Shown here piece by piece: positions 5,790 to 48,132 of a stretch of 64,000 nucleotides of DNA (the first letter of the stretch is position 1; each line of letters begins with the position of its first letter). Below the pieces are notes generated by a model. It ran no database searches. It was not told where the DNA came from and saw only the letters and a list, made by a program, of their open reading frames with translations. A program made the translations under genes and the position numbers. This DNA is from Patescibacteria group bacterium. GTDB taxonomy: Bacteria; Patescibacteriota; JAQUNI01. The stretch spans positions 54,306 to 118,305 of the forward strand of contig JAQUNI010000001.1 in the NCBI GenBank assembly GCA_028717685.1. The letters run 5' to 3'.

Positions 5790-5889
5790 AATAAAAGGCC
5801 CTTTTTTTTATCAATTTAATGAGGTAAAATAGGAGAAGGAATGAAATTATTCTACCTTGAATTACGAAATTCATTTGTCTATTAGCAGG

Positions 5890-5965
5890 CTATTCTCCCT
5901 CCCCCTCCAACTCCCCCTCGGGCAGGGGGAGTGTAATCAAGCTTATCGCTAATAGACGATACATT
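5890..5965. repeat. GC-rich ~76 bp element, copy 1 of 2 (second copy at 26135..26210)
   Basis: ctattctccctccccctcc-aact-ccccctcgggcagggggagtgtaatcaagct..., about 90 percent identical to the second copy; contains the hairpin ccccc-tcgggca-ggggg. Confidence 0.6.
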
Positions 5966-5992: not shown

Positions 5993-7459
5993 ATGCTTCA
6001 ACTCTACAACACTCTAACCAAAAAAAAGGAAACATTTATACCTCTGCATCGCGGCAAAGCAACGATGTATACCTGCGGTCCGACGGTTTATAATTACGCC
6101 CACATTGGCAATTTTCGCGCCTATTTAACCGCGGACATTTTGCGCCGTTTTTTGGAATATTCAGGCTATGAAGTAAAACACGTAAAAAATATTACCGATG
6201 TGGGACACTTAACGTCTGATTCCGACACTGGCGAGGATAAAATTGAAGCAACCGCGAAAAAGAAAAAATTGGATCCTTATGAAATTTCGCGTTTTTACAC
6301 GGAAAGATTTTTAGAGGATGAGGCACGGCTTAATATCCTCCCGGCGCACAAATATCCCCGCGCCACCGCGCATATTCAGGAAATGATTAAAGCAATCGCC
6401 AGTTTAATCAAAAATGGCTACGCCTATGAAAAAAATGGCAATGTATTTTTTGATATTGCGCGCTTTAAAGATTATGGTAAATTATCCGGCAACACTTTGG
6501 AAAAACTAAAACAAGGAGCGCGGATTGAACCCCATCCGGATAAAAAAAATCCTTTTGATTTTGCCCTCTGGAAAAAAGCGGAAAAGGACCATATTATGCG
6601 CTGGGAATCGCCTTGGAGCGCGGGGTATCCCGGGTGGCATATTGAATGTTCAGCAATGAGCATGGAATACCTTGGCGAAACATTAGATATTCACACGGGC
6701 GGAGAGGATAATATCTTTCCTCACCACGAAGATGAAATCGCCCAATCAGAAAGTTTAACAGGCAAGCCCTTTGTCCATTATTGGGCGCATACAAGCTGGC
6801 TCCTTGTGGACAACGAAAAAATGAGCAAATCGCGCGGTAACTTTTACACTTTGCGCGATCTTGTTAAACTTGGCTACTCGCCGATGGCTTTCCGGCTTTT
6901 GGTTTTGCAATCACACTACAAAAGCCATCTCAATTTCACCCATGGGGCAATTGACGCGGCGCAAGAAGGCTTACAAAAAATATACGATTTTACAGAAACT
7001 ATGCTCTTATCCGGCGAACACGAAAAAGGCGGCGCTTCGCCTCAAACAATCCGAAAGTTGATAAAGGAATACGAAAAAAAATTCATAGAAGCGCTGAACG
7101 ACGATTTGAATACGCCCCAAGCCGTAGCCGTATTGTTTGATTTTATACGAAAAATCAATAATCTCGCTCCTCTGCGCAAGCGCGAAGCAAAGCCGATTTA
7201 CAAATTTATATTACATTTGGATCGGGTTTTGGGACTCAAGATAGACAAAGTGGGTCAAGAAAAGCAGGAAATTCCAGAAGAAATAAAAAAGATGGCAGAG
7301 GAAAGAGAAAAGGCGCGCGAGGCAAAAGATTTCGCGCAAGCGGATAACTTGCGAAGGGAAATTAAAAAGGCCGGATTCCTAATCCGCGATACAAAGAAAG
7401 GCGCAATTTTGACTAAAAAAAGAGGGCACTCTCTAAACAGTGCCCACGTAAGGAGCTAA
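5993..7459 (+). CDS. cysS: cysteine--tRNA ligase
   Basis: 488 aa, class I motifs HIGN (AHIGNFRAY) and KMSKS (KMSKSRGN). Confidence 0.92.
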   Translation: MLQLYNTLTKKKETFIPLHRGKATMYTCGPTVYNYAHIGNFRAYLTADILRRFLEYSGYEVKHVKNITDVGHLTSDSDTGEDKIEATAKKKKLDPYEISRFYTERFLEDEARLNILPAHKYPRATAHIQEMIKAIASLIKNGYAYEKNGNVFFDIARFKDYGKLSGNTLEKLKQGARIEPHPDKKNPFDFALWKKAEKDHIMRWESPWSAGYPGWHIECSAMSMEYLGETLDIHTGGEDNIFPHHEDEIAQSESLTGKPFVHYWAHTSWLLVDNEKMSKSRGNFYTLRDLVKLGYSPMAFRLLVLQSHYKSHLNFTHGAIDAAQEGLQKIYDFTETMLLSGEHEKGGASPQTIRKLIKEYEKKFIEALNDDLNTPQAVAVLFDFIRKINNLAPLRKREAKPIYKFILHLDRVLGLKIDKVGQEKQEIPEEIKKMAEEREKAREAKDFAQADNLRREIKKAGFLIRDTKKGAILTKKRGHSLNSAHVRS

Positions 7460-19933: not shown

Positions 19934-20090
19934 ATTTCTAATTTTCAATTTCTAATTTCTATTAAATTTTTAATTTTAAAATTTTCAAACACCATTAGAA
20001 ATGAAAAATTTCTAGACGGGATAAACCTTTTAAAAATTAATTCATTAGAAATTTAATAAAAATTGAAAATTAGAAATTGAAAATTACTTA
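19934..20090. repeat. AT-rich MITE-like element, copy B
   Basis: Left TIR 19940..19958 and right TIR 20067..20085 are perfect reverse complements; internal sequence near-identical to copy A; right end overlaps the stop codon of the convergent gene. Confidence 0.55.
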
Positions 20091-21136
20091 TAATACACCA
20101 ATCCCTGCACCCTTAAATCAATATAGTATTTAATTTCTTTATTATTTTTCCCAATATCCTCTTTGAAAACTAAGGTTAAAGCTTCAAGTTGGTTTTGCAA
20201 GCTCTGTCTAGTGTCAAAAAATATTTGATAACCTTTGTCCGTTTTTATATACAAGTCGCGGGAATCAGAAATCGGCACAATGAATTCTTGGATTTTCAAA
20301 TCCGTCTTTAGAGATAACAAATCCCGCACTTGAAAAAGGAAACTTAAAAAAGAGGGGTCTAAAATCTGCTCGCGCGGTTCTACTTTTTTAAAAGACTGAT
20401 CATAAAGAACGGGTAATCCCTTTTCCCATACCGTTTCCTCGGGAATTTCCTCGCCGATTATTCCTTCCGCATCTAAAAAGTGATAAAGAATAGTGGGATT
20501 TTCGGGATAGGAGGTTGGAGTCAAGATGGCTTGTGACTCTTTATCTTTAACTTCCCCGATTTCCTCCCTACTCGTAGAATCACTGGCAAAAGCTTCAGGG
20601 GGTAAAAATAAATCCTGCGGCGCGCCATTTGCCCAAATCGCTTTCGGCTCCCTCTCGGTAATGATAATTTTTAAAACATCGGGGAATTCTTTTTTAATGT
20701 CTATTTTCTCAATCTGGGCAAAATGGGCATAGATTACGCTGCTTAAATGCTTTTTACCCGCAATAATCAAATTTTCTTTGGGAAAAATAAAGGCGCGTCC
20801 CTTTAAATTCTCGCGCGCCAAATTTTCCACATCTTCACCCTTGACATTAACATTGCCTACCACTACAATCTCCTTGATTTGCCAGAACGGAAAAAAGAAT
20901 AAAAAATAAACAAGCGAACCTAACGCAAGCAAAAAAAGGAAAAAGGCAATTTTCCGCTGCAAATGTCCCGAAGCCTCGCGGACGCGAAAACGAGGAGTCG
21001 CGAGATAAATCCTCGGGCTCGCTAAGGTCCGCTTTTTCCTAAAAAACCCGCGTTTCCACTCCACTTTCCTTTTGCGGGATTTTTGTTTATACGGGTTTAA
21101 GTATAATTTTTTGCGGCTGGGTTTATGAGAAAACAC
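20084..21136 (-). CDS. FtsQ/DivIB-like cell division protein (POTRA domain)
   Basis: 350 aa; basic N-terminus, one TM helix, then POTRA-like IKEIVVVGNVNVKGEDVENL. The ORF starts with GTG; the true start may be further in. Confidence 0.5.
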   Translation of the reverse strand: MFSHKPSRKKLYLNPYKQKSRKRKVEWKRGFFRKKRTLASPRIYLATPRFRVREASGHLQRKIAFFLFLLALGSLVYFLFFFPFWQIKEIVVVGNVNVKGEDVENLARENLKGRAFIFPKENLIIAGKKHLSSVIYAHFAQIEKIDIKKEFPDVLKIIITEREPKAIWANGAPQDLFLPPEAFASDSTSREEIGEVKDKESQAILTPTSYPENPTILYHFLDAEGIIGEEIPEETVWEKGLPVLYDQSFKKVEPREQILDPSFLSFLFQVRDLLSLKTDLKIQEFIVPISDSRDLYIKTDKGYQIFFDTRQSLQNQLEALTLVFKEDIGKNNKEIKYYIDLRVQGLVYYK

Positions 21137-21166
21137 TTGACAAAATACTAATGTTTATTATATAAT
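21137..21166 (+). promoter_or_regulatory. sigma-70-type promoter (TTGACA-18 nt-TATAAT)
   Basis: Perfect -35 TTGACA (21137..21142) and -10 TATAAT (21161..21166), about 90 bp upstream of the 21257 gene, which has an AAGGAGA ribosome-binding site. Confidence 0.5.
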
Positions 21167-21256
21167 ATTAACTCGCTCTTTGATGGTACATTCTATATCT
21201 ATATTTAGTTGTGCTTTGAATAGTTACAAAAAATTCTAATAATAAGGAGAGATGTT

Positions 21257-21751
21257 ATGTCTTTTAATAGCGATATATATGATAGTTTTAGGGATATAAC
21301 AACACCATATCAAGAGAAAAAAGTCGTAGCAGAAAAATTAGAAGGGATTATGCAAGAAATAGGAGAAATCTCTGCTAATTTGGTGCAACTCAACTCTGTG
21401 GAATTGTTAAAAGAGATTCTTTCCTTCCTTAAGCAAGATAGGCGAGGAGAAGCAGAGGAAGCCATTGGAAAAGCATGGCCAACTCTGGAACGTGAGTATT
21501 ATAGTCTCGCGGAAGGATCCTCTTCCATCCCTCCTGAAAAGAAAAAAAAATTCTGGAAAATAGCCTCTTTAATAGAAGAGGCTGAGGACGATTTTATAGC
21601 CCAAGGATTAGATACTAACGTGTCTTTTTCTTTGGGCGGGGATAGCCATATAAGAACCATTAAACAGGACATGTGGCTCCCTCCAGACAAAAGAACCTAT
21701 ACGGTTCTTTTGCAAGAATTAATGCAAGCTGTATCTCTTCCGCAACCCTAA
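21257..21751 (+). CDS. hypothetical protein (first gene of the small plus-strand island)
   Basis: 164 aa, strong SD, no recognisable domain. Confidence 0.5.
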   Translation: MSFNSDIYDSFRDITTPYQEKKVVAEKLEGIMQEIGEISANLVQLNSVELLKEILSFLKQDRRGEAEEAIGKAWPTLEREYYSLAEGSSSIPPEKKKKFWKIASLIEEAEDDFIAQGLDTNVSFSLGGDSHIRTIKQDMWLPPDKRTYTVLLQELMQAVSLPQP

Positions 21752-21904
21752 AAGTTGCGGATTTTTTTATAAGAATTGAAATATGATTTTTCACGATGCG
21801 ATTTCCCAAACACTTGCTCTGTGATTAATCTTCTGCTTTAATATAAACAGGTTTGTTCCTAAATGCACCCTTAATGCACCTTGAATATCTTCAGGAGGTG
21901 AAAA

Positions 21905-22165
21905 ATGGCGGAAGGTTTAAATATAAAACTAAGCCCTGTCCAAAGCTTAACAGCAAGAATAATCGCTGGAAAAGAAAATATGACAGGAGAAGAAATAATA
22001 ACTGTCGCCCTAAACCTATATGAAACCGTACAGGGTGAGCTAGACTCATCACCTGACCGAGTAACCTTAGCGTTGGTGAAAAACGATGGAGAAATTTACA
22101 AGGAAATAATTCTCCCTAACCATATTCCTATACTACCCGCCCACACCGATATAATTTCAATATAA
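21905..22165 (+). CDS. small ribbon-helix-helix-like protein (paralog 1)
   Basis: 86 aa with AGGAGGTG ribosome-binding site; N-terminal strand-helix-helix pattern; alignable to the next ORF (L-I-S...ALxxL...EL-S...LALV...KEIxLP). Confidence 0.45.
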   Translation: MAEGLNIKLSPVQSLTARIIAGKENMTGEEIITVALNLYETVQGELDSSPDRVTLALVKNDGEIYKEIILPNHIPILPAHTDIISI

Positions 22166-22193
22166 AAACCATCATCTTAAGGGAGGTTTAACA

Positions 22194-22469
22194 ATGTCAG
22201 AGTTGAGTATCACATTTAGTAAGAACTGGAGTGCCGAGATAACAAGAATGGCTGAAAAAAGGGGAATAGAACCAAAAAACTTGATTTTAGACGCGCTGAC
22301 TGTATTATCAGCCTTAGAAGAAGAACTAGCTTCTGGAGAGGGAAAACAAGGTTTAGCTTTAGTAAGCCCCCGTTTCCGAATCAGAAAAGAAATAGTGCTT
22401 CCCCGTTATTCCTCTAAACTATTAACAAAGAATGCGCTCACAATAGAGCCCACACTCGCCGTAGACTAA
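22194..22469 (+). CDS. small ribbon-helix-helix-like protein (paralog 2)
   Basis: 91 aa with GGGAGG ribosome-binding site; ITFSKNWSAEITRMAEKRGIEPKNLILDAL resembles a CopG/Arc-type RHH. Confidence 0.45.
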   Translation: MSELSITFSKNWSAEITRMAEKRGIEPKNLILDALTVLSALEEELASGEGKQGLALVSPRFRIRKEIVLPRYSSKLLTKNALTIEPTLAVD

Positions 22470-22499
22470 AAGCTACGGTTTTTTTATTCTACTAGACCC

Positions 22500-22640
22500 T
22501 TCTCCGCCTCCCGCTTCCCAAGGGGAGAGGAGTTATTATCCCCTCCTTTCCAAGGAGGGGCTAGGGGAGGTTCTGAGTCAGAACCCCACCCATCCTCCCC
22601 TTGGAAAGGGGAGGTGGGGGGAGAAAGGAAGGGGTCTTTC
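22500..22640. repeat. GC-rich imperfect palindrome / hairpin cluster (probable bidirectional terminator)
   Basis: Hairpins cccctcc-tttccaa-ggagggg and cctcccc-ttggaaa-ggggagg arranged around the perfect palindrome ggttctgagtcagaacc, between the island and the convergent serS. Confidence 0.5.
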
Positions 22641-23926
22641 TACCTCTTAATCTCTTTGAACCCACAATACTTCTGCAAAATCTTGGGCACTTCAATGGAA
22701 CCGTCTTTGCGCTGGTAATTTTCCATAATCGCAATTAAAACCCTACCAATCGCAATAGCAGTAGAGTTGATAGTATGGACAAATTTTTTATTCCCTTTCT
22801 CGTCTTTATATTTGATATTCAGACGGCGCGCTTGGAAATCCGTGTCGTGACTCGCCGAAACTACCTCGCGATAACAACTCTCTGACGGCAGCCAAGCTTC
22901 TAAGTCAATTTTTTTAGCATTAGGCGCGCCCAGATCGCCGGTTGCGATATTCACGGCTTGATAATGAATTCCCAAGCCCTGCCAAATTTCTTCCACGATT
23001 TTAACAATCATTTCGTAAACTTGCCACGAATCTTCTTGCGTAGCGAACGCGAACATTTCCAGTTTATCAAATTGATGCCCCCGCAAAATTCCTTTTAAAT
23101 CCTTACCATAAGCGCCAGCCTCCCGCCGAAAGCAAGACGAAAAACCCATATAAAGTTTTGGTTTCCCGGGGGCTAGCCCCAAAATCTCGTCCATATGGTA
23201 CGCTGCAAGCACAACCTCGGCAGTGCCAATTAAATATAATTTTTCTTTTTCATCACCCGTGAGCTCATAAATCTCATTTTTATCCGCGGGGAAGAAGCCT
23301 GTGCCATACATCGCGGCTTCGCGCACGAGCATAGGCGGCAGGATCGGAGTAAAACCTTTTTTAATTAAAATATCTAAGACATATTGTATAAGAGCAAATT
23401 CCAGGCTCACAAGCTCGTTTTTTAGATACCAAAAACGGGCGCCTGAAACCTGCGCGCCTTTTTTAATATCTATTAAATCCAAAGCCTCTCCCAATTCATA
23501 ATGGGATTTGGGTTTAAAATCAAATTTTGATGGCTCTCCCCATTGATGATCCACCGCGTTGCCAGAAGCATCCGACGCCACTGACACAGAATGATCCGAA
23601 AGATTGGGAAATTGATCTAATAAAATTTTGATCTCCGCTTCTTTCTTCTCCAATTCCTCCCTTAAAACCTGCAATTGCTCCTTGTTCTTTTTCATTCCCA
23701 TAATCATCTTGGCTTTTTCCTCCTCGCCCTGCGTCTGCACAACCTTTGCTGAAAATTCGTTCTTGACTTGTTCCAACTCATTTTTCTTTTGAATTAATGC
23801 CCGCCGTTTTTTATCCCAATCTAAAAATTCATCCACTTTTCCTGATGGCATTGCCTTTAAATGGCGATTTTTTAATTCTTGGCGCCAGAGGTCTGGCTGT
23901 TCGCGCAATAATTTTATGTCAATCAT
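22640..23926 (-). CDS. serS: serine--tRNA ligase
   Basis: 428 aa, N-terminal coiled-coil arm and class II catalytic core. Confidence 0.92.
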   Translation of the reverse strand: MIDIKLLREQPDLWRQELKNRHLKAMPSGKVDEFLDWDKKRRALIQKKNELEQVKNEFSAKVVQTQGEEEKAKMIMGMKKNKEQLQVLREELEKKEAEIKILLDQFPNLSDHSVSVASDASGNAVDHQWGEPSKFDFKPKSHYELGEALDLIDIKKGAQVSGARFWYLKNELVSLEFALIQYVLDILIKKGFTPILPPMLVREAAMYGTGFFPADKNEIYELTGDEKEKLYLIGTAEVVLAAYHMDEILGLAPGKPKLYMGFSSCFRREAGAYGKDLKGILRGHQFDKLEMFAFATQEDSWQVYEMIVKIVEEIWQGLGIHYQAVNIATGDLGAPNAKKIDLEAWLPSESCYREVVSASHDTDFQARRLNIKYKDEKGNKKFVHTINSTAIAIGRVLIAIMENYQRKDGSIEVPKILQKYCGFKEIKR

Positions 23927-23950: not shown

Positions 23951-26068
23951 TTAAAGTCCTAAATTTTGAGATATATCTTGCATCGCCCGGAGGCCGATTT
24001 TCACAAACTCTTCTAAAGATAAACCAAAGGATTCACAAGAAGTAATTACTTCTCGCCGCGCGCCTTGGGCGAAGGATTTTTCTTTAAATCTCTTTAAGAT
24101 AGACTGCATTGATAAATCAGATAATTTTTTTGATGGCAAAACCAAGGTGGCAGCCACAATCAAACCAGTCAAAGGATCCACAGCGTAAATCGCTTTTTCC
24201 ATCAAGGTTTTGCGAGGCGCGCCGCATTGATCATTATGCGCCTTAATGCCAACCAAAATTACGGGATGCACTCCTTCCTGCTCTAAAATCCCTACGGTGG
24301 TCGGACCGTGTTTTTCCGGCGCTTCGCGATAATCAAACATTTCCATATCTAAGTCGTGCAGAAGACCAGTAAGCCCCCAGACTTCCTTATTCTTTTGAAA
24401 ATGCTTGGCAAGAGCAGCCATTATCGCTTCCGTTGCCAACATATGTTTGCGCGAATTTTCATTCTTCACATATTGGCAAACCAAATCCCAAGCTTTGGCG
24501 CGCGTAATCCCTAGGTTCTCTGCCTCTTCGTTTTGAGCGGGCGCTTTTGTCGCTGGACAGACCTTTTGCGTATTTAATGGTTTCATTAAAGGAAAAAATA
24601 CTGCCTCACGGATGCTCGGAGCGTTGGTTAAAAACATTACCAGACGATCAATACCCATGCCCCAACCCGCGATCGGCGGCATTCCGTATTCCATTGCCCG
24701 CACATAATCTTCATCCATCATATGCGCCTCCGCGTCTCCCGCTTCCCGCATTTCAACCTGTTCTTCAAAACGCCTACGCTGCTCCAGAGGGTCAACTAAC
24801 TCAGAATAAGCATTGACTAATTCCTGCCCTAAAACCACTAACTGAAAACGATCCACAATCTTTGGATTCTGGTCATTCCTGCGCGCCAAGGGCGATAATT
24901 CAATGGGATGACCAGTTAGAAAAAGGGGACCTTTAATTTTCGGCCGCGAAACCTTTTTGTATAATTGATCTACTAAACCCCCAAAGCCTAATTTGCCAAA
25001 GCCTTCAATTTCAATTTTTTTCTTCCGCATTTCCTTTCTAAGTTTCTCCGCGGTATCAGCCTTGTTAATATCAATACCGCAATCTTCCAAAATCAAGCTT
25101 CCAAAATTTTTTCTCTGCCAAGGAGGAGTAAAATCTATTTTCTGACCTTGATAGTCAATCTGCAAGCTCCCAAAAACGCGGTTTAAGAGATAAACCAACA
25201 TTTCTTCAGTTTGCGCCATTAAAAATTCATAATTTTTGTAAGCCCAATAAAATTCCAGCATCGTAAAATCTTGAAGATGGGCGGTGTCCATTCCTTCATT
25301 GCGAAAAACCCGCGCCATCTCAAAAACCTTTTCCAAACCGCCTACAATTAAGCGCTTCAAATATGTTTCCGGCGCAATCCTTAAATACAAGGGAATTTGC
25401 AGGGCTTCGTGCTCTGTAATGAAAGGACGCGCGAGCGCGCCCGAAGCCTTGGTTTGAAGCACTGGCGTCTCCACCTCCAAAAAACCCCTCTCCGTCAGAA
25501 AATCACGCAGGGCATCGCAGATCTCCGCGCGCTTTTTGAAACGCTCACGCACTTCCGGATGAACAAGCAGATCCAAATAACGTTCCCGAAATCTAATCTC
25601 TTGATTAGAGAGACCTTTCCATTTTTCCGGCAAAGGACGGATGGATTTAGCGAGAATTTTATAATCGGAAACGAGGAGGGTTCTTTCCCCTTTCCGAGTG
25701 ACAAATACGGTTCCTTGGAGTTCAATAAAGTCGCCAATGTCAAAATTTTTAAAAAATTTGTATTTCTCCGGACCTGAAATGTCTTTTTTGAGATAAGCTT
25801 GGATTCTGCCGCTTTCATCATCAATATGGATGAAGGTAGAGCCGCCGTGTTCGCGAATGTTGCGTATGCGCCCCGCGACCACAATCTCGCCTTTTTCTTT
25901 TTCTATGGCTTCAAAATCATCCAATATTTTTTTGACTGTATGCGTCCGACGCGAAGAATCAGGGTAAGGATTGATTTCGGCTTTTAAAATTTTATTCAAT
26001 TTTTCTTTGCGATTTTGGATTAAATCTTTAAGCATATATTTTATTATACCTTGAGTTACGAAATTCAT
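23951..26068 (-). CDS. lysS: lysine--tRNA ligase (class II) fused to a C-terminal HD-domain phosphohydrolase
   Basis: 705 aa. Residues 1 to about 500 are a complete LysRS. The last ~200 aa carry HD-domain motifs: H (RKHMLATEA), HD (LLHDLD), H (KAHND), D (YAVDPL). Confidence 0.85.
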   Translation of the reverse strand: MNFVTQGIIKYMLKDLIQNRKEKLNKILKAEINPYPDSSRRTHTVKKILDDFEAIEKEKGEIVVAGRIRNIREHGGSTFIHIDDESGRIQAYLKKDISGPEKYKFFKNFDIGDFIELQGTVFVTRKGERTLLVSDYKILAKSIRPLPEKWKGLSNQEIRFRERYLDLLVHPEVRERFKKRAEICDALRDFLTERGFLEVETPVLQTKASGALARPFITEHEALQIPLYLRIAPETYLKRLIVGGLEKVFEMARVFRNEGMDTAHLQDFTMLEFYWAYKNYEFLMAQTEEMLVYLLNRVFGSLQIDYQGQKIDFTPPWQRKNFGSLILEDCGIDINKADTAEKLRKEMRKKKIEIEGFGKLGFGGLVDQLYKKVSRPKIKGPLFLTGHPIELSPLARRNDQNPKIVDRFQLVVLGQELVNAYSELVDPLEQRRRFEEQVEMREAGDAEAHMMDEDYVRAMEYGMPPIAGWGMGIDRLVMFLTNAPSIREAVFFPLMKPLNTQKVCPATKAPAQNEEAENLGITRAKAWDLVCQYVKNENSRKHMLATEAIMAALAKHFQKNKEVWGLTGLLHDLDMEMFDYREAPEKHGPTTVGILEQEGVHPVILVGIKAHNDQCGAPRKTLMEKAIYAVDPLTGLIVAATLVLPSKKLSDLSMQSILKRFKEKSFAQGARREVITSCESFGLSLEEFVKIGLRAMQDISQNLGL

Positions 26069-26134
26069 TTTGTTATTGTGGGAGATTTTTCCTCCTCTTG
26101 ACCTGCGGGAGACAGGGAGGGGTCTAATAAATGA

Positions 26135-26210
26135 CTATTCTCCCTCCCCCTCCGCCTCCCCCTCGGGCAGGGGGAGTGTAATCAAGCTCCTCGTTAATAG
26201 ATGACATATT
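26135..26210. repeat. GC-rich ~76 bp element, copy 2 of 2
   Basis: ctattctccctccccctcc-gcct-ccccctcgggcagggggagtgtaatcaagct..., near-identical to 5890..5965. Confidence 0.6.
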
Positions 26211-40245: not shown

Positions 40246-40746
40246 AATGAAAACTTAAAACGAAAAGCGTAAAACGCAAAACTACAATGCAAAACTTAAA
40301 ACTTTTTTTATCTTACTTGACGCCTTGATTATAGCATAGCGGAAATTGACGAGTCAAAGGAACGAATCTAGCAGTTGGAATTAAGAATCAAGAATTAAGG
40401 GATTGTTATATTTGTTTCATTGTTGCATTGTTGCATTGTTGAATTCGTAAATATCTTTTCGACCGTCATTGCGAGGCTATTTCCATAGAATCTTAGAAGC
40501 TACATTATCAACCCCCCTACCCCCTTGCCAGGGGGGTCAATTTTTTCCCCTTAGAAAATGAAGGGTGGGGGCTGGAAAAATTTTCTCCCCTGATAAGGGG
40601 AGAAGCAAGAGGGGTTGTAAAATGTAAATCAAAAAAGACAAGATTTTTTTTCTTGCCTTTTCTGTTGTAACCTCTTGATAATCTAATTTTTTAAAAATAG
40701 AACTTTAAGCCCCTCACTTGGTGGCATGGGGGAGAATTCAGAGAGA

Positions 40747-47561: not shown

Positions 47562-47640
47562 AATGTTGGAATTAGGAATTGTGAATCAGGAATTAGGAAA
47601 GAAGAAAAAAGGCTATTCATCTTTATTCCTTATTCAGATT

Positions 47641-48030: not shown

Positions 48031-48132
48031 AAAATTGGAATTGTGAATTATGAATTATGAATTATGAAATTTGACAGCACATTCTTAATTTTAGATTTTC
48101 GCGATTCGTAATTCGTAATTCTAGATTCGGTG

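Follow-up and report, generated by a model that had tools for sequence, protein, structure and literature searches.

Predicted ribbon-helix-helix regulators in a hypervariable accessory region that separates ftsQ from serS in a Patescibacteria clade

The interval between an ftsQ-like gene and serS in the window (the whole 64-kb stretch of DNA analyzed here, from an uncultured member of the Patescibacteria) contains three plus-strand open reading frames, of 164, 86, and 91 aa (ORF1, ORF2, and ORF3). The explanation that best fits the evidence, with a probability of about one in two, is that ribbon-helix-helix (RHH) proteins of the CopG type control a strong promoter, as repressors or autorepressors, in an accessory locus whose gene content is hypervariable.

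The repressor mechanism as a whole is one that we infer from the DNA and its relatives. The locus would be an accessory region restricted to one lineage, a Doudnabacteria-like clade of the Patescibacteria, where it is anchored between ftsQ and serS and has ORF3 as its one fixed component. The RHH proteins would dimerize by way of the N-terminal strands, with ORF2/ORF3 heteromers, or higher oligomers formed through a C-terminal hairpin, as further possibilities. They would bind repeated DNA at the promoters of the locus, the candidate sites being a palindrome at the -10 box of the first promoter (P1) and 11-nt repeats before ORF2. This binding would auto-repress an expression unit that would otherwise be very strong and driven by Shine-Dalgarno (SD) sites. 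The genes between P1 and ORF3 would be interchangeable and weakly constrained cargo, represented here by ORF1 and in other strains by an acidic protein of 184 aa, a 58-aa remnant of this protein, or a protein that resembles GvpO.

Gene layout and expression signals

The left-hand flank is the ftsQ-like gene (20084-21136, minus strand), which is recognized by a POTRA_1 match at E 2e-4, just under the Pfam cut-off, and the right-hand flank is serS (22640-23926, minus strand). Between them lie ORF1 (21257-21751), preceded by the SD sequence AAGGAGAG at 21244-21251, ORF2 (21905-22165), with AGGAGGTG at 21893-21900, and ORF3 (22194-22469), with GGGAGG at 22181-22186. The wider neighborhood includes PMT glycosyltransferases, lysS, and greA, and the single tRNA of the window is found at 365-436. 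No flanking direct repeats were found around the locus, no integrase or transposase was found near it, and there are no further paralogues of the three ORFs within the window. The GC3 of the three ORFs (0.32-0.36) is the 2nd, 4th, and 7th lowest among the 59 genes of the window (mean 0.437, sd 0.057), which is a mild deviation of 1.4-2 sd.

The preliminary description of this DNA, made from the sequence alone, presented the three plus-strand genes between minus-strand neighbors as one compact island. The arrangement is as described, but the island is not a single transcription unit, given that a good intrinsic terminator, T1 (21739-21768, plus strand), is located at the end of ORF1, which is separated from ORF2 by approximately 150 nt. 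This terminator is composed of an 8-bp stem (hairpin 21739-21761) followed by a run of seven T residues, and is kept in the related locus L001. A second intrinsic terminator, T2 (22458-22486, plus strand; hairpin 22458-22479, followed by a run of seven T residues), is common to the two RHH genes, ORF2 and ORF3, which are only 28 nt apart, and is nearly identical across L001, L004, and L019. The loop of the hairpin contains the stop codon of the ORF in both T1 and T2. The island thus consists of two transcription units, separated by T1.

The promoter P1 has a perfect sigma-70 consensus on the plus strand (TTGACA at 21137-21142, an 18-nt spacer, and TATAAT at 21161-21166). As the preliminary description had noted, the match is perfect, and it is unique in the 64 kb, where 0.03 such sites are expected, with at least one match in three of 100 shuffles. 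Among close relatives, P1 is kept in L001-L003, L006, and L018. In L004, the same -10 box and downstream sequence are joined directly to ORF2. The -35 box, which begins at 21137, lies immediately next to the GTG start codon (21136) of the ftsQ-like gene, which is read in the opposite direction. The -10 box is overlapped by a 12-bp perfect palindrome, TATTATATAATA (21156-21167), which is kept in L001 and L004, and which also gives TATAAT on the minus strand, toward ftsQ. This palindrome is a candidate operator.

A weak candidate promoter for ORF2-ORF3, P2 (TTGCTC, a 17-nt spacer, and TTTAAT; 21814-21842, plus strand), can be read from the sequence, and shares the upstream 9-mer AAACACTTG with P1. 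The consensus scan did not report P2, because the second base of its -10 box is a T. The RHH genes may be driven from this site, and its weakness leaves the expression of ORF2-ORF3 downstream of T1 poorly accounted for. A tandem 11-nt direct repeat, CCTAAATGCAC / CCTTAATGCAC (21858-21879, plus strand), is found immediately 5' of the SD site of ORF2, and would offer an RHH operator with a spacing of one helical turn. It has a two-copy counterpart in L004, CTTAATACAC(C)/CTTAATACAT, and is missing upstream of ORF3 in L019. With sequences that are either AT-rich or short, these putative operators could both have arisen by chance.

Each of the three ORFs has a strong SD site, as had been claimed for them, in a window in which approximately 50 of the 59 genes have none. 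The anti-SD duplex energies are -14.6 kcal/mol for ORF2, -12.9 for ORF3, and -8.2 for ORF1, which rank 2nd, 3rd, and 7th among the 59 genes. Both P1 and the SD sites are conserved.

Family assignment of ORF2 and ORF3

The two small proteins were described at the outset as paralogous and RHH-like, and both points are borne out. ORF2 and ORF3 share 32% identity over 69 aa (E 1e-6), and both consist of an RHH part followed by a C-terminal beta-hairpin, which in ORF3 reads LALV..KEIVLP and in the family as a whole conforms to the motif LAlv..KEIvLP. The family profile matches the CopG structures of the PDB (1b01/2cpg) at E 1.1e-4, with residues 1-40 aligned onto residues 1-40, compared with E 0.14 for a profile built from the close relatives alone. 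The Pfam model RHH_1 (PF01402) is matched by five of 15 family members, with a best E of 3e-6. ORF2 and ORF3 themselves match no Pfam model even at E<=1, including RHH_1 and the other RHH models, and their link to the RHH proteins is transitive, through distant relatives. The three-dimensional fold also agrees with membership of the RHH superfamily, and among the nearest structures are many RHH antitoxins, namely TacA, CopA(SO), MazE7, ParD, KacA, RelB, FitA, and VapB.

The RHH-plus-hairpin family reaches other lineages, and 13 representatives of it are recovered at E<=1e-3. One distant relative, P0015, combines two RHH units in the same polypeptide. Downstream of the distant members P0014 and P0019 there is in each case a protein of 127-131 aa with two TM segments, and these two proteins are homologous (E 7e-8), while P0021 adjoins an integrase and a ParA-like gene. 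ORF3 is, by prediction, a small DNA-binding RHH protein of the CopG/Arc type with an extra, conserved C-terminal beta-hairpin, and ORF2 appears to be its old and diverged tandem paralogue.

The likeness to CopG of pMV158 and to Arc and Mnt of P22 lies in the N-terminal beta-strand, in which polar residues alternate with hydrophobic ones, in the two helices that come after it, and in the presence of small proteins close behind a strong promoter with palindromic or repeated DNA. Arc and Mnt are related RHH proteins encoded by neighboring genes in the immI region of P22, and ORF2 and ORF3 are likewise two related RHH genes located side by side. By contrast with CopG and Arc, ORF2 and ORF3 are approximately 45 residues longer, including the beta-hairpin, which CopG and Arc lack, and unlike these systems, the locus belongs to the chromosome of a Patescibacteria genome and has neither a replicon nor a phage as its context, and DNA binding by its proteins is a prediction. 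The doubling of the RHH unit, here as adjacent genes, and the candidate operators in the form of tandem direct repeats recall TraY of the F plasmid and the omega repressor of pSM19035, but the locus has neither a conjugation nor a partition context. The RHH antitoxins (TacA/DUF1778, ParD, CopA-SO, MazE7, and BrnA) share with ORF3 an RHH domain with a C-terminal extension and a compact operon in which the partner gene varies. They differ in having a recognizable adjacent toxin, whereas the partner here is a paralogous RHH protein, and in the nature of the extension, a predicted, conserved beta-hairpin in ORF2 and ORF3 as opposed to the typical antitoxin tail, which is disordered or helical and binds the toxin.

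Conservation, cargo turnover, and competing explanations

The order ftsQ, small genes, and serS is found in every relative recovered, and an ORF3 homologue lies between ftsQ and serS in L001-L004, L019, L021, L007, and L008, its position being held in L007 and L008 although serS is just 73-75% identical there. At this distance, ORF3 itself is 45-52% identical. Given that ORF3 occupies the same site in all the relatives, including the distant ones, the locus does not appear to be a recent insertion. The suggestion of an acquired module survives in part, in that the GC3 is atypical and the gene content varies between close strains, but an insertion specific to this genome is not supported, in view of the fixed site of ORF3. 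The family is extremely small, with approximately eight loci in billions of sequences, and scans of genome and metagenome contigs for additional loci recovered only one Doudnabacteria contig that was already known. A phage or plasmid origin was rejected, given that neither the scan of viral contigs, nor tblastn against 72,556 plasmids and 50,697 phages, nor Foldseek against viral structures (at E<=1e-3) produced a match.

The genes located 5' of ORF3 differ among strains with flanks that are approximately 90% identical. ORF1 and ORF2 are polymorphic at this level of divergence, and ORF3 is present in every relative, including those in which synonymous sites are saturated. The layouts observed are ORF1 with ORF2, ORF1 with a stop codon and ORF2, ORF2 with a 58-aa ORF, a lone 184-aa ORF, and a GvpO-like ORF. 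ORF2 is absent from L019, L021, L007, and L008, and in some relatives its place is taken by the 184-aa protein or the GvpO-like protein. The 184-aa acidic protein is carried by L019, and the 58-aa ORF of L004 is its remnant. The GvpO-like protein, carried by L007, matches PF05800 (scores of 25.2 and 32.4 bits; the cut-off is 25). The cargo proteins of the different layouts do not resemble one another, and in direct comparisons the 184-aa ORF is similar to neither the GvpO-like ORF nor ORF1.

ORF1 is an all-helical orphan protein, encoded by a dispensable, fast-evolving cargo gene. It has only three homologues among 5.8 billion proteins, its AF2 model (pLDDT 47.1) is too poor for a fold search, and none of the three ORFs could be assigned to a family in Pfam, NCBIfam, PHROGs, or PADLOC. 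The gene is absent from L004, L019, L021, L007, and L008, and is already decaying in a sister lineage, where codon 97 is an in-frame TAA (L001-L003). Its dN/dS is approximately 1.08 against L001, compared with 0.40 against L018. By contrast, ORF2 and ORF3 have dN/dS values of 0.15-0.45 at dS 0.07-0.9 (ORF2, for example, 0.20 against both L001 and L004), and are thus real genes under purifying selection. All the genes of the locus evolve fast: when dS is equal, their dN is approximately five times the value for ftsQ. Greater conservation of the module than of its flanking genes was considered and rejected, given that the dS of ORF2 (0.56) and ORF3 (0.91) against L004 exceeds the background of approximately 0.27. 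In L004, serS is the sole gene aberrant against the background dS, at 56% identity, with its neighbors at 94-97%.

It is conceivable, if very improbable, that these are decaying or non-functional lineage-specific ORFs in a recombination-prone junkyard, with the promoter and SD sites as remnants that have no current role. The dN/dS of approximately 1 for ORF1 against L001, its nonsense codon there and its absence elsewhere, the minute size of the family, and the recombination in the neighboring DNA, as in the serS of L004, speak for this reading. This reading is opposed by the purifying selection on ORF2 and ORF3, the persistence of ORF3 in relatives with saturated synonymous sites, the recognizable RHH-plus-hairpin family in other lineages, and the conservation of P1 and the SD sites. 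Similarly improbable, if somewhat less so, is a role in cell division, in which the RHH proteins would set the expression of ftsQ through promoter competition or transcriptional interference, with the cargo as an incidental passenger. In addition to the abutment of P1 on the ftsQ start codon and the TATAAT that the palindrome gives on both strands, this reading draws on a promoter-like site on the minus strand (21267-21239), whose -10 box is a perfect TATAAT in L001, and on the divergent orientation of ftsQ and the locus, which is kept in all the relatives with a visible flank. The argument is purely geometric, however, and any TATAAT box can be expected to lie within AT-rich palindromes, while the conserved adjacency may reflect mere ancestry in a small, syntenic genome, and the fast evolution of ORF3 relative to serS is a poor fit for the housekeeping control of an essential gene.

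A toxin-first type II toxin-antitoxin (TA) locus with a role in addiction or defense, which is considered unlikely, would make ORF3 an RHH antitoxin and autorepressor, ORF2 a duplicated antitoxin, and ORF1, the 184-aa protein, and the GvpO-like protein unrecognized, interchangeable toxins. This gene order is known from BrnTA and HicAB, and many of the nearest structures are RHH antitoxins. RHH is also the commonest DNA-binding domain of antitoxins, so the fold cannot tell a plain repressor from an antitoxin. The conserved RHH gene and the variable partner 5' of it form a tight operon in which the SD sites are strong, every gene of the locus evolves fast, and the decay of the cargo with the retention of ORF3, through the stop codon of ORF1 in L001-L003 and the truncation of the 184-aa gene in L004, is the pattern expected of decaying toxins. 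The settings of P0014, P0019, and P0021, beside two-TM proteins or an integrase and a ParA-like gene, point the same way. Against this, ORF1, ORF2, and the 184-aa, 58-aa, and GvpO-like ORFs match no toxin or defense family in the four databases searched, ORF1 is uncoupled from ORF2 both translationally and transcriptionally by its own terminator and the long gap, and the gene directly 5' of ORF3 here encodes an RHH protein and not an enzyme-like toxin. The locus is also chromosomal, in the same position across the clade, with no mobile-element genes found nearby, and has no homologue in the plasmids and phages searched. The addiction-like character proposed in the preliminary description thus finds no backing in toxin families, nearby integrases or transposases, or phage and plasmid homologues. 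A broader version, to which little probability is given, would see the ORF3-type RHH protein with its hairpin as the constant regulator or antidote for a hypervariable slot of cargo genes next to the promoter, in a conflict locus (toxin-first TA or defense) of the CPR/Patescibacteria in which unrelated small effectors (ORF1, the 184-aa and GvpO-like proteins, and the two-TM proteins of distant relatives) are swapped before the RHH gene. In this version, P1 would be interlocked with the ftsQ promoter, so that activation would also affect division.

If the preferred reading, of CopG-like repressors at an accessory locus, is right, the ORF3 group represents a modest new subfamily of a well-known type of regulator, with small proteins distinguished by the C-terminal KEIvLP beta-hairpin and covered by no Pfam model, and gene turnover and recombination would have a hotspot here, within otherwise streamlined and syntenic Patescibacteria genomes. 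To our knowledge, few transcription factors are known from the Patescibacteria, and regulation in this group is almost undescribed; the literature search found nothing specific on RHH proteins or SD usage in these bacteria. The consensus promoter and strong SD sites, in a genome poor in SD sites, would mark genes that can be expressed in heterologous hosts. The locus alone opens no major question, and its value would be higher only if the cargo genes encode effectors controlled by ORF3.

The GC-rich element beside serS

The island is closed, as the preliminary description stated, by a GC-rich cluster of nested palindromes (22493-22637), located between the convergent ORF3 and serS, with RNA-fold z-scores of -4.2 (plus strand) and -4.6 (minus strand). 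No Rfam family is matched at the gathering threshold, and relaxed thresholds recover only chance hairpin matches to miRNA precursors within the palindrome. The two ends of the cluster (GACCC...GGGGTC) are conserved, and the interior between them differs in length by strain, being approximately 85 nt in L001 and approximately 200 nt in L004, with the whole element absent from L008. Hairpins of the type CTCCCC-N3-14-GGGGAG are found in four copies in the window, all of them intergenic, compared with an expectation of 0.02. The palindrome is an element separate from the regulatory genes, and belongs to a family of REP-like hairpin repeats dispersed among intergenic regions. These hairpins have no sequence similarity to the enterobacterial REPs, and no RAYT-type transposase was identified for them, but they resemble REP/BIME elements in being nested, in varying in length among strains, and in lying between convergent genes.

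Gene order and expression signals

The three plus-strand genes lie between two minus-strand genes, encoding an FtsQ-like protein (20084-21136; POTRA_1 match at E = 2e-4, slightly below the Pfam cut-off) and SerS (22640-23926), beyond which follow a lysS-HD fusion, greA, folD, and a PBP gene. The window as a whole is typical of a small CPR genome. The products of ORF1 (21257-21751, 164 aa), ORF2 (21905-22165, 86 aa), and ORF3 (22194-22469, 91 aa) are identical to the hypothetical proteins PHW01_00405, PHW01_00410, and PHW01_00415 from a 722-kb contig of a Patescibacteria MAG. ORF2 and ORF3 are paralogous (32% identity over 69 residues, E = 1e-6), and the GC3 of the three genes is the second, fourth, and seventh lowest among 59 genes.

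These ORFs, the consensus promoter, and the strong Shine-Dalgarno (SD) sites all proved to be as the preliminary description had reported them. The conserved strong promoter P1 (TTGACA-N18-TATAAT, 21137-21166) is the sole perfect consensus promoter in the 64 kb, where 0.03 would be expected. When the 19 nt upstream of 59 ORFs were scored against the anti-SD sequence, the conserved sites of ORF2, ORF3, and ORF1 ranked second, third, and seventh, respectively, which is unusual for a genome in which approximately 50 of the 59 ORFs (at least 120 aa) in the whole window are essentially devoid of a detectable SD. Other strong sites precede genes for a CDP-alcohol phosphatidyltransferase (5085), CorA (4036), and a DPBB lytic-transglycosylase-like protein (52697), and an unknown gene (7483).

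The three genes had been regarded as one island, and its features are present, but intrinsic terminators follow both ORF1 (T1, 21739-21761 plus T7) and ORF3 (T2, 22458-22479 plus T7). The island is therefore better described as P1-ORF1-T1, followed by ORF2-ORF3-T2, possibly with a weak promoter of its own, the candidate P2 (TTGCTC-N17-TTTAAT, 21814-21842).

The ribbon-helix-helix proteins ORF2 and ORF3

No direct match to a curated family was found for ORF2 or ORF3, and an exhaustive profile search of 1.8 billion cluster representatives recovered only 13 proteins at E<=1e-3, two of which are repeat-protein artefacts. The remainder, of 67-110 aa, are built alike: a short strand at the N-terminus, in which hydrophobic residues alternate, precedes two helices (…A.K.gi.k.eiI..AL.lY…), and a linker that is acidic or rich in Gly leads to a beta-hairpin (LAlv…g.I.KEIvLP). 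When the wider family alignment was used as a profile, residues 1-40 matched CopG (1b01/2cpg) in register at E = 1.1e-4, and five of 15 family members reached Pfam RHH_1, while the AF2 model of ORF3 (pLDDT 60.8) has two helices followed by a hairpin. The assignment to the ribbon-helix-helix (RHH) fold is thus sound, which supports the regulatory part of the preliminary description, and the proteins form a very small subfamily, new within a well-known class of regulators. The C-terminal hairpin, covered by no Pfam model, is a family-specific addition.

At the DNA-facing strand positions of the CopG alignment, ORF2 has N6/K8 and ORF3 has S5/T7; given these unlike residues, the two proteins, if both bind DNA, would probably read different target sequences. 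Two distant family members, P0019 and P0014, are each followed by a homologous protein of 127-131 aa (L009, 303-686, and L010, 3040-3435; BLASTP E = 7e-8), for which two transmembrane segments are predicted and which, in that branch, may be a conserved partner.

Against close relatives, the dN/dS of ORF2 and ORF3 is 0.15-0.45 at dS values of up to 0.9, and both genes are therefore translated and under purifying selection, although their proteins change several times faster than those of ftsQ, lysS, and greA (dN/dS 0.07-0.13). A reading of these two genes as junk ORFs can be rejected on this basis. The same reading is plausible for ORF1, for which the dN/dS is approximately 1.08 against L001 (first 96 codons) and 0.40 against L018. 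In three independent assemblies (L001-L003), codon 97 is an in-frame TAA, beyond which the sequence can still be aligned; the predicted structure is poor (pLDDT 47, all-helical), and only three homologues were found among 5.8 billion sequences.

Gene turnover and proposed regulation between ftsQ and serS

In all the recoverable relatives, the frame of ftsQ(-), small plus-strand genes, and serS(-) is kept, but the genes between P1 and ORF3 (the cargo) differ between strains. All three ORFs occur in the window and in L018, where the contig ends inside ORF1, while L001-L003 and L006 (Ca. Doudnabacteria SO_2017) have ORF1 with the stop, ORF2, and ORF3. In L004/L005 (Parcubacteria LiPW_72), P1 directly abuts ORF2, which is followed by a 58-aa ORF and ORF3; ORF1 is missing by an indel (approximately 21251-21850) with AGG microhomology at both ends. 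The 58-aa ORF is the N-terminus of a 184-aa gene, deletion-fused to the SD of ORF3 (AAGGAGGTTGAGTAATG). In L019 and L021, an acidic protein of 183/184 aa precedes ORF3, with neither ORF1 nor ORF2. In L007 and L008, which are far more distant (serS 73-75% and ORF3 45-52% identical in amino acids), an 80-aa protein precedes the ORF3 homologue and matches GvpO (gas vesicle protein O; PF05800, above threshold) at 1230-1469 and 211-453, respectively; no gas-vesicle context is visible in this organism.

Apart from these two, strains that differ in cargo have ftsQ genes approximately 90-95% identical (dS ~0.25-0.33). Together, the synteny, cargo, and divergence data indicate that ORF3 is ancestral at the site and the P1-to-ORF3 interval fluid. 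The idea of a recently acquired island is only partly supported. The locus has no associated integrase, transposase, tRNA, or flanking repeat, and no homologue turned up in phage, plasmid, and viral-contig collections.

The wider region is also recombinogenic. Relative to L004, identity is 94-97% for lysS, greA, folD, and the PBP gene (dS ~0.27), while dS is 0.56 for ORF2 and 0.91 for ORF3, and serS of L004 (1089-2414) shares just 56% identity, its dS being saturated. This suggests that serS was replaced by a xenologue or that a recombined tract ends near ORF2-ORF3. The RHH subfamily lies in a hypervariable, recombination-prone locus of a CPR genome.

ORF3, together with ORF2 in the window, would act as a CopG/Arc-like DNA-binding (auto)repressor of the locus. 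Candidate operators are a perfect 12-bp palindrome (TATTATATAATA, 21156-21167) over the -10 box of P1, conserved in L001 and L004, and a tandem 11-nt repeat (CCTAAATGCAC/CCTTAATGCAC, 21858-21879) directly upstream of the ORF2 SD, which has a two-copy counterpart in L004. ORF2-ORF3 would be expressed in the window from the weak P2 plus read-through of T1, and in L004 directly from P1. More speculatively, cooperative binding may rest on dimer-dimer contacts made through the conserved hairpin.

The main alternative is a toxin-first toxin-antitoxin system, in line with the addiction-like module suggested in the preliminary description. No DNA-binding domain is commoner among antitoxins than RHH, ORF3 persists while the cargo decays, and the two-transmembrane proteins follow two distant family members; however, no toxin family is detectable, the terminator insulates ORF1 from the ORF2/ORF3 pair, and the immediate partner in the window is another RHH protein, which leaves an addiction module as an unsupported, less likely possibility. 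A role in the control of ftsQ is suggested only by geometry, in that the start codon of ftsQ lies right next to the -35 box of P1, TATAAT can be read on either strand of the -10 palindrome, and the minus strand has a promoter-like site (21267-21239).

Palindromic and tandem repeats

The GC-rich palindromic cluster noted downstream of ORF3 (22493-22637) is real, folding far better than shuffled sequences (z -4.2 and -4.6), but is outside the logic of the gene module. Hairpins of its type, CTCCCC(C)-N3-14-(G)GGGGAG, occur four times in the window (5911-5931, 22595-22613, 26156-26176, and 40585-40602) against 0.02 expected, all intergenic, with two copies identical (CTCCCCCTCGGGCAGGGGGAG). The outer GACCC…GGGGTC ends are kept in L001 and L004, around an interior that measures approximately 145 nt in the window and is shorter in L001 (~85 nt) and longer in L004 (~200 nt), the latter with extra sequence inside a hairpin loop. 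At the orthologous site, related hairpins are found in L001, L004, and L007, nested differently and of different length in each strain, and the element is absent from L008. The family is REP/BIME-like in its behaviour. The palindrome may also contribute to ending convergent transcription out of serS, a gene that lacks its own T-run terminator.

Tandem heptads (ATTCCTA/ATTCCTG...) form a further intergenic class, with 26 matches to ATTCCNAATTCC (<=1 mismatch) against 3.3 expected, in arrays at 2404-2436, 32565-32604/32670-32695, 47001-47026/47072-47097, 47568-47600, and 48037-48048. Their position is often immediately 5' of the start codon of an SD-less gene, and some, inverted and facing, could form long hairpins. 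A segment of approximately 100 nt is repeated with ~93% identity at 5847-5956, upstream of the gene at 5993-7459, and at 26041-26201, where the lysS copy has an extra insert of ~64 nt; it covers ~19 nt at the start of lysS (minus strand), the sequence upstream of that gene, and a GC hairpin. The lysyl-tRNA synthetase itself (23951-26068, minus strand, 705 aa) has a C-terminal extension of ~200 aa, which is a weak HD-domain match in the precomputed annotation of an orthologue.
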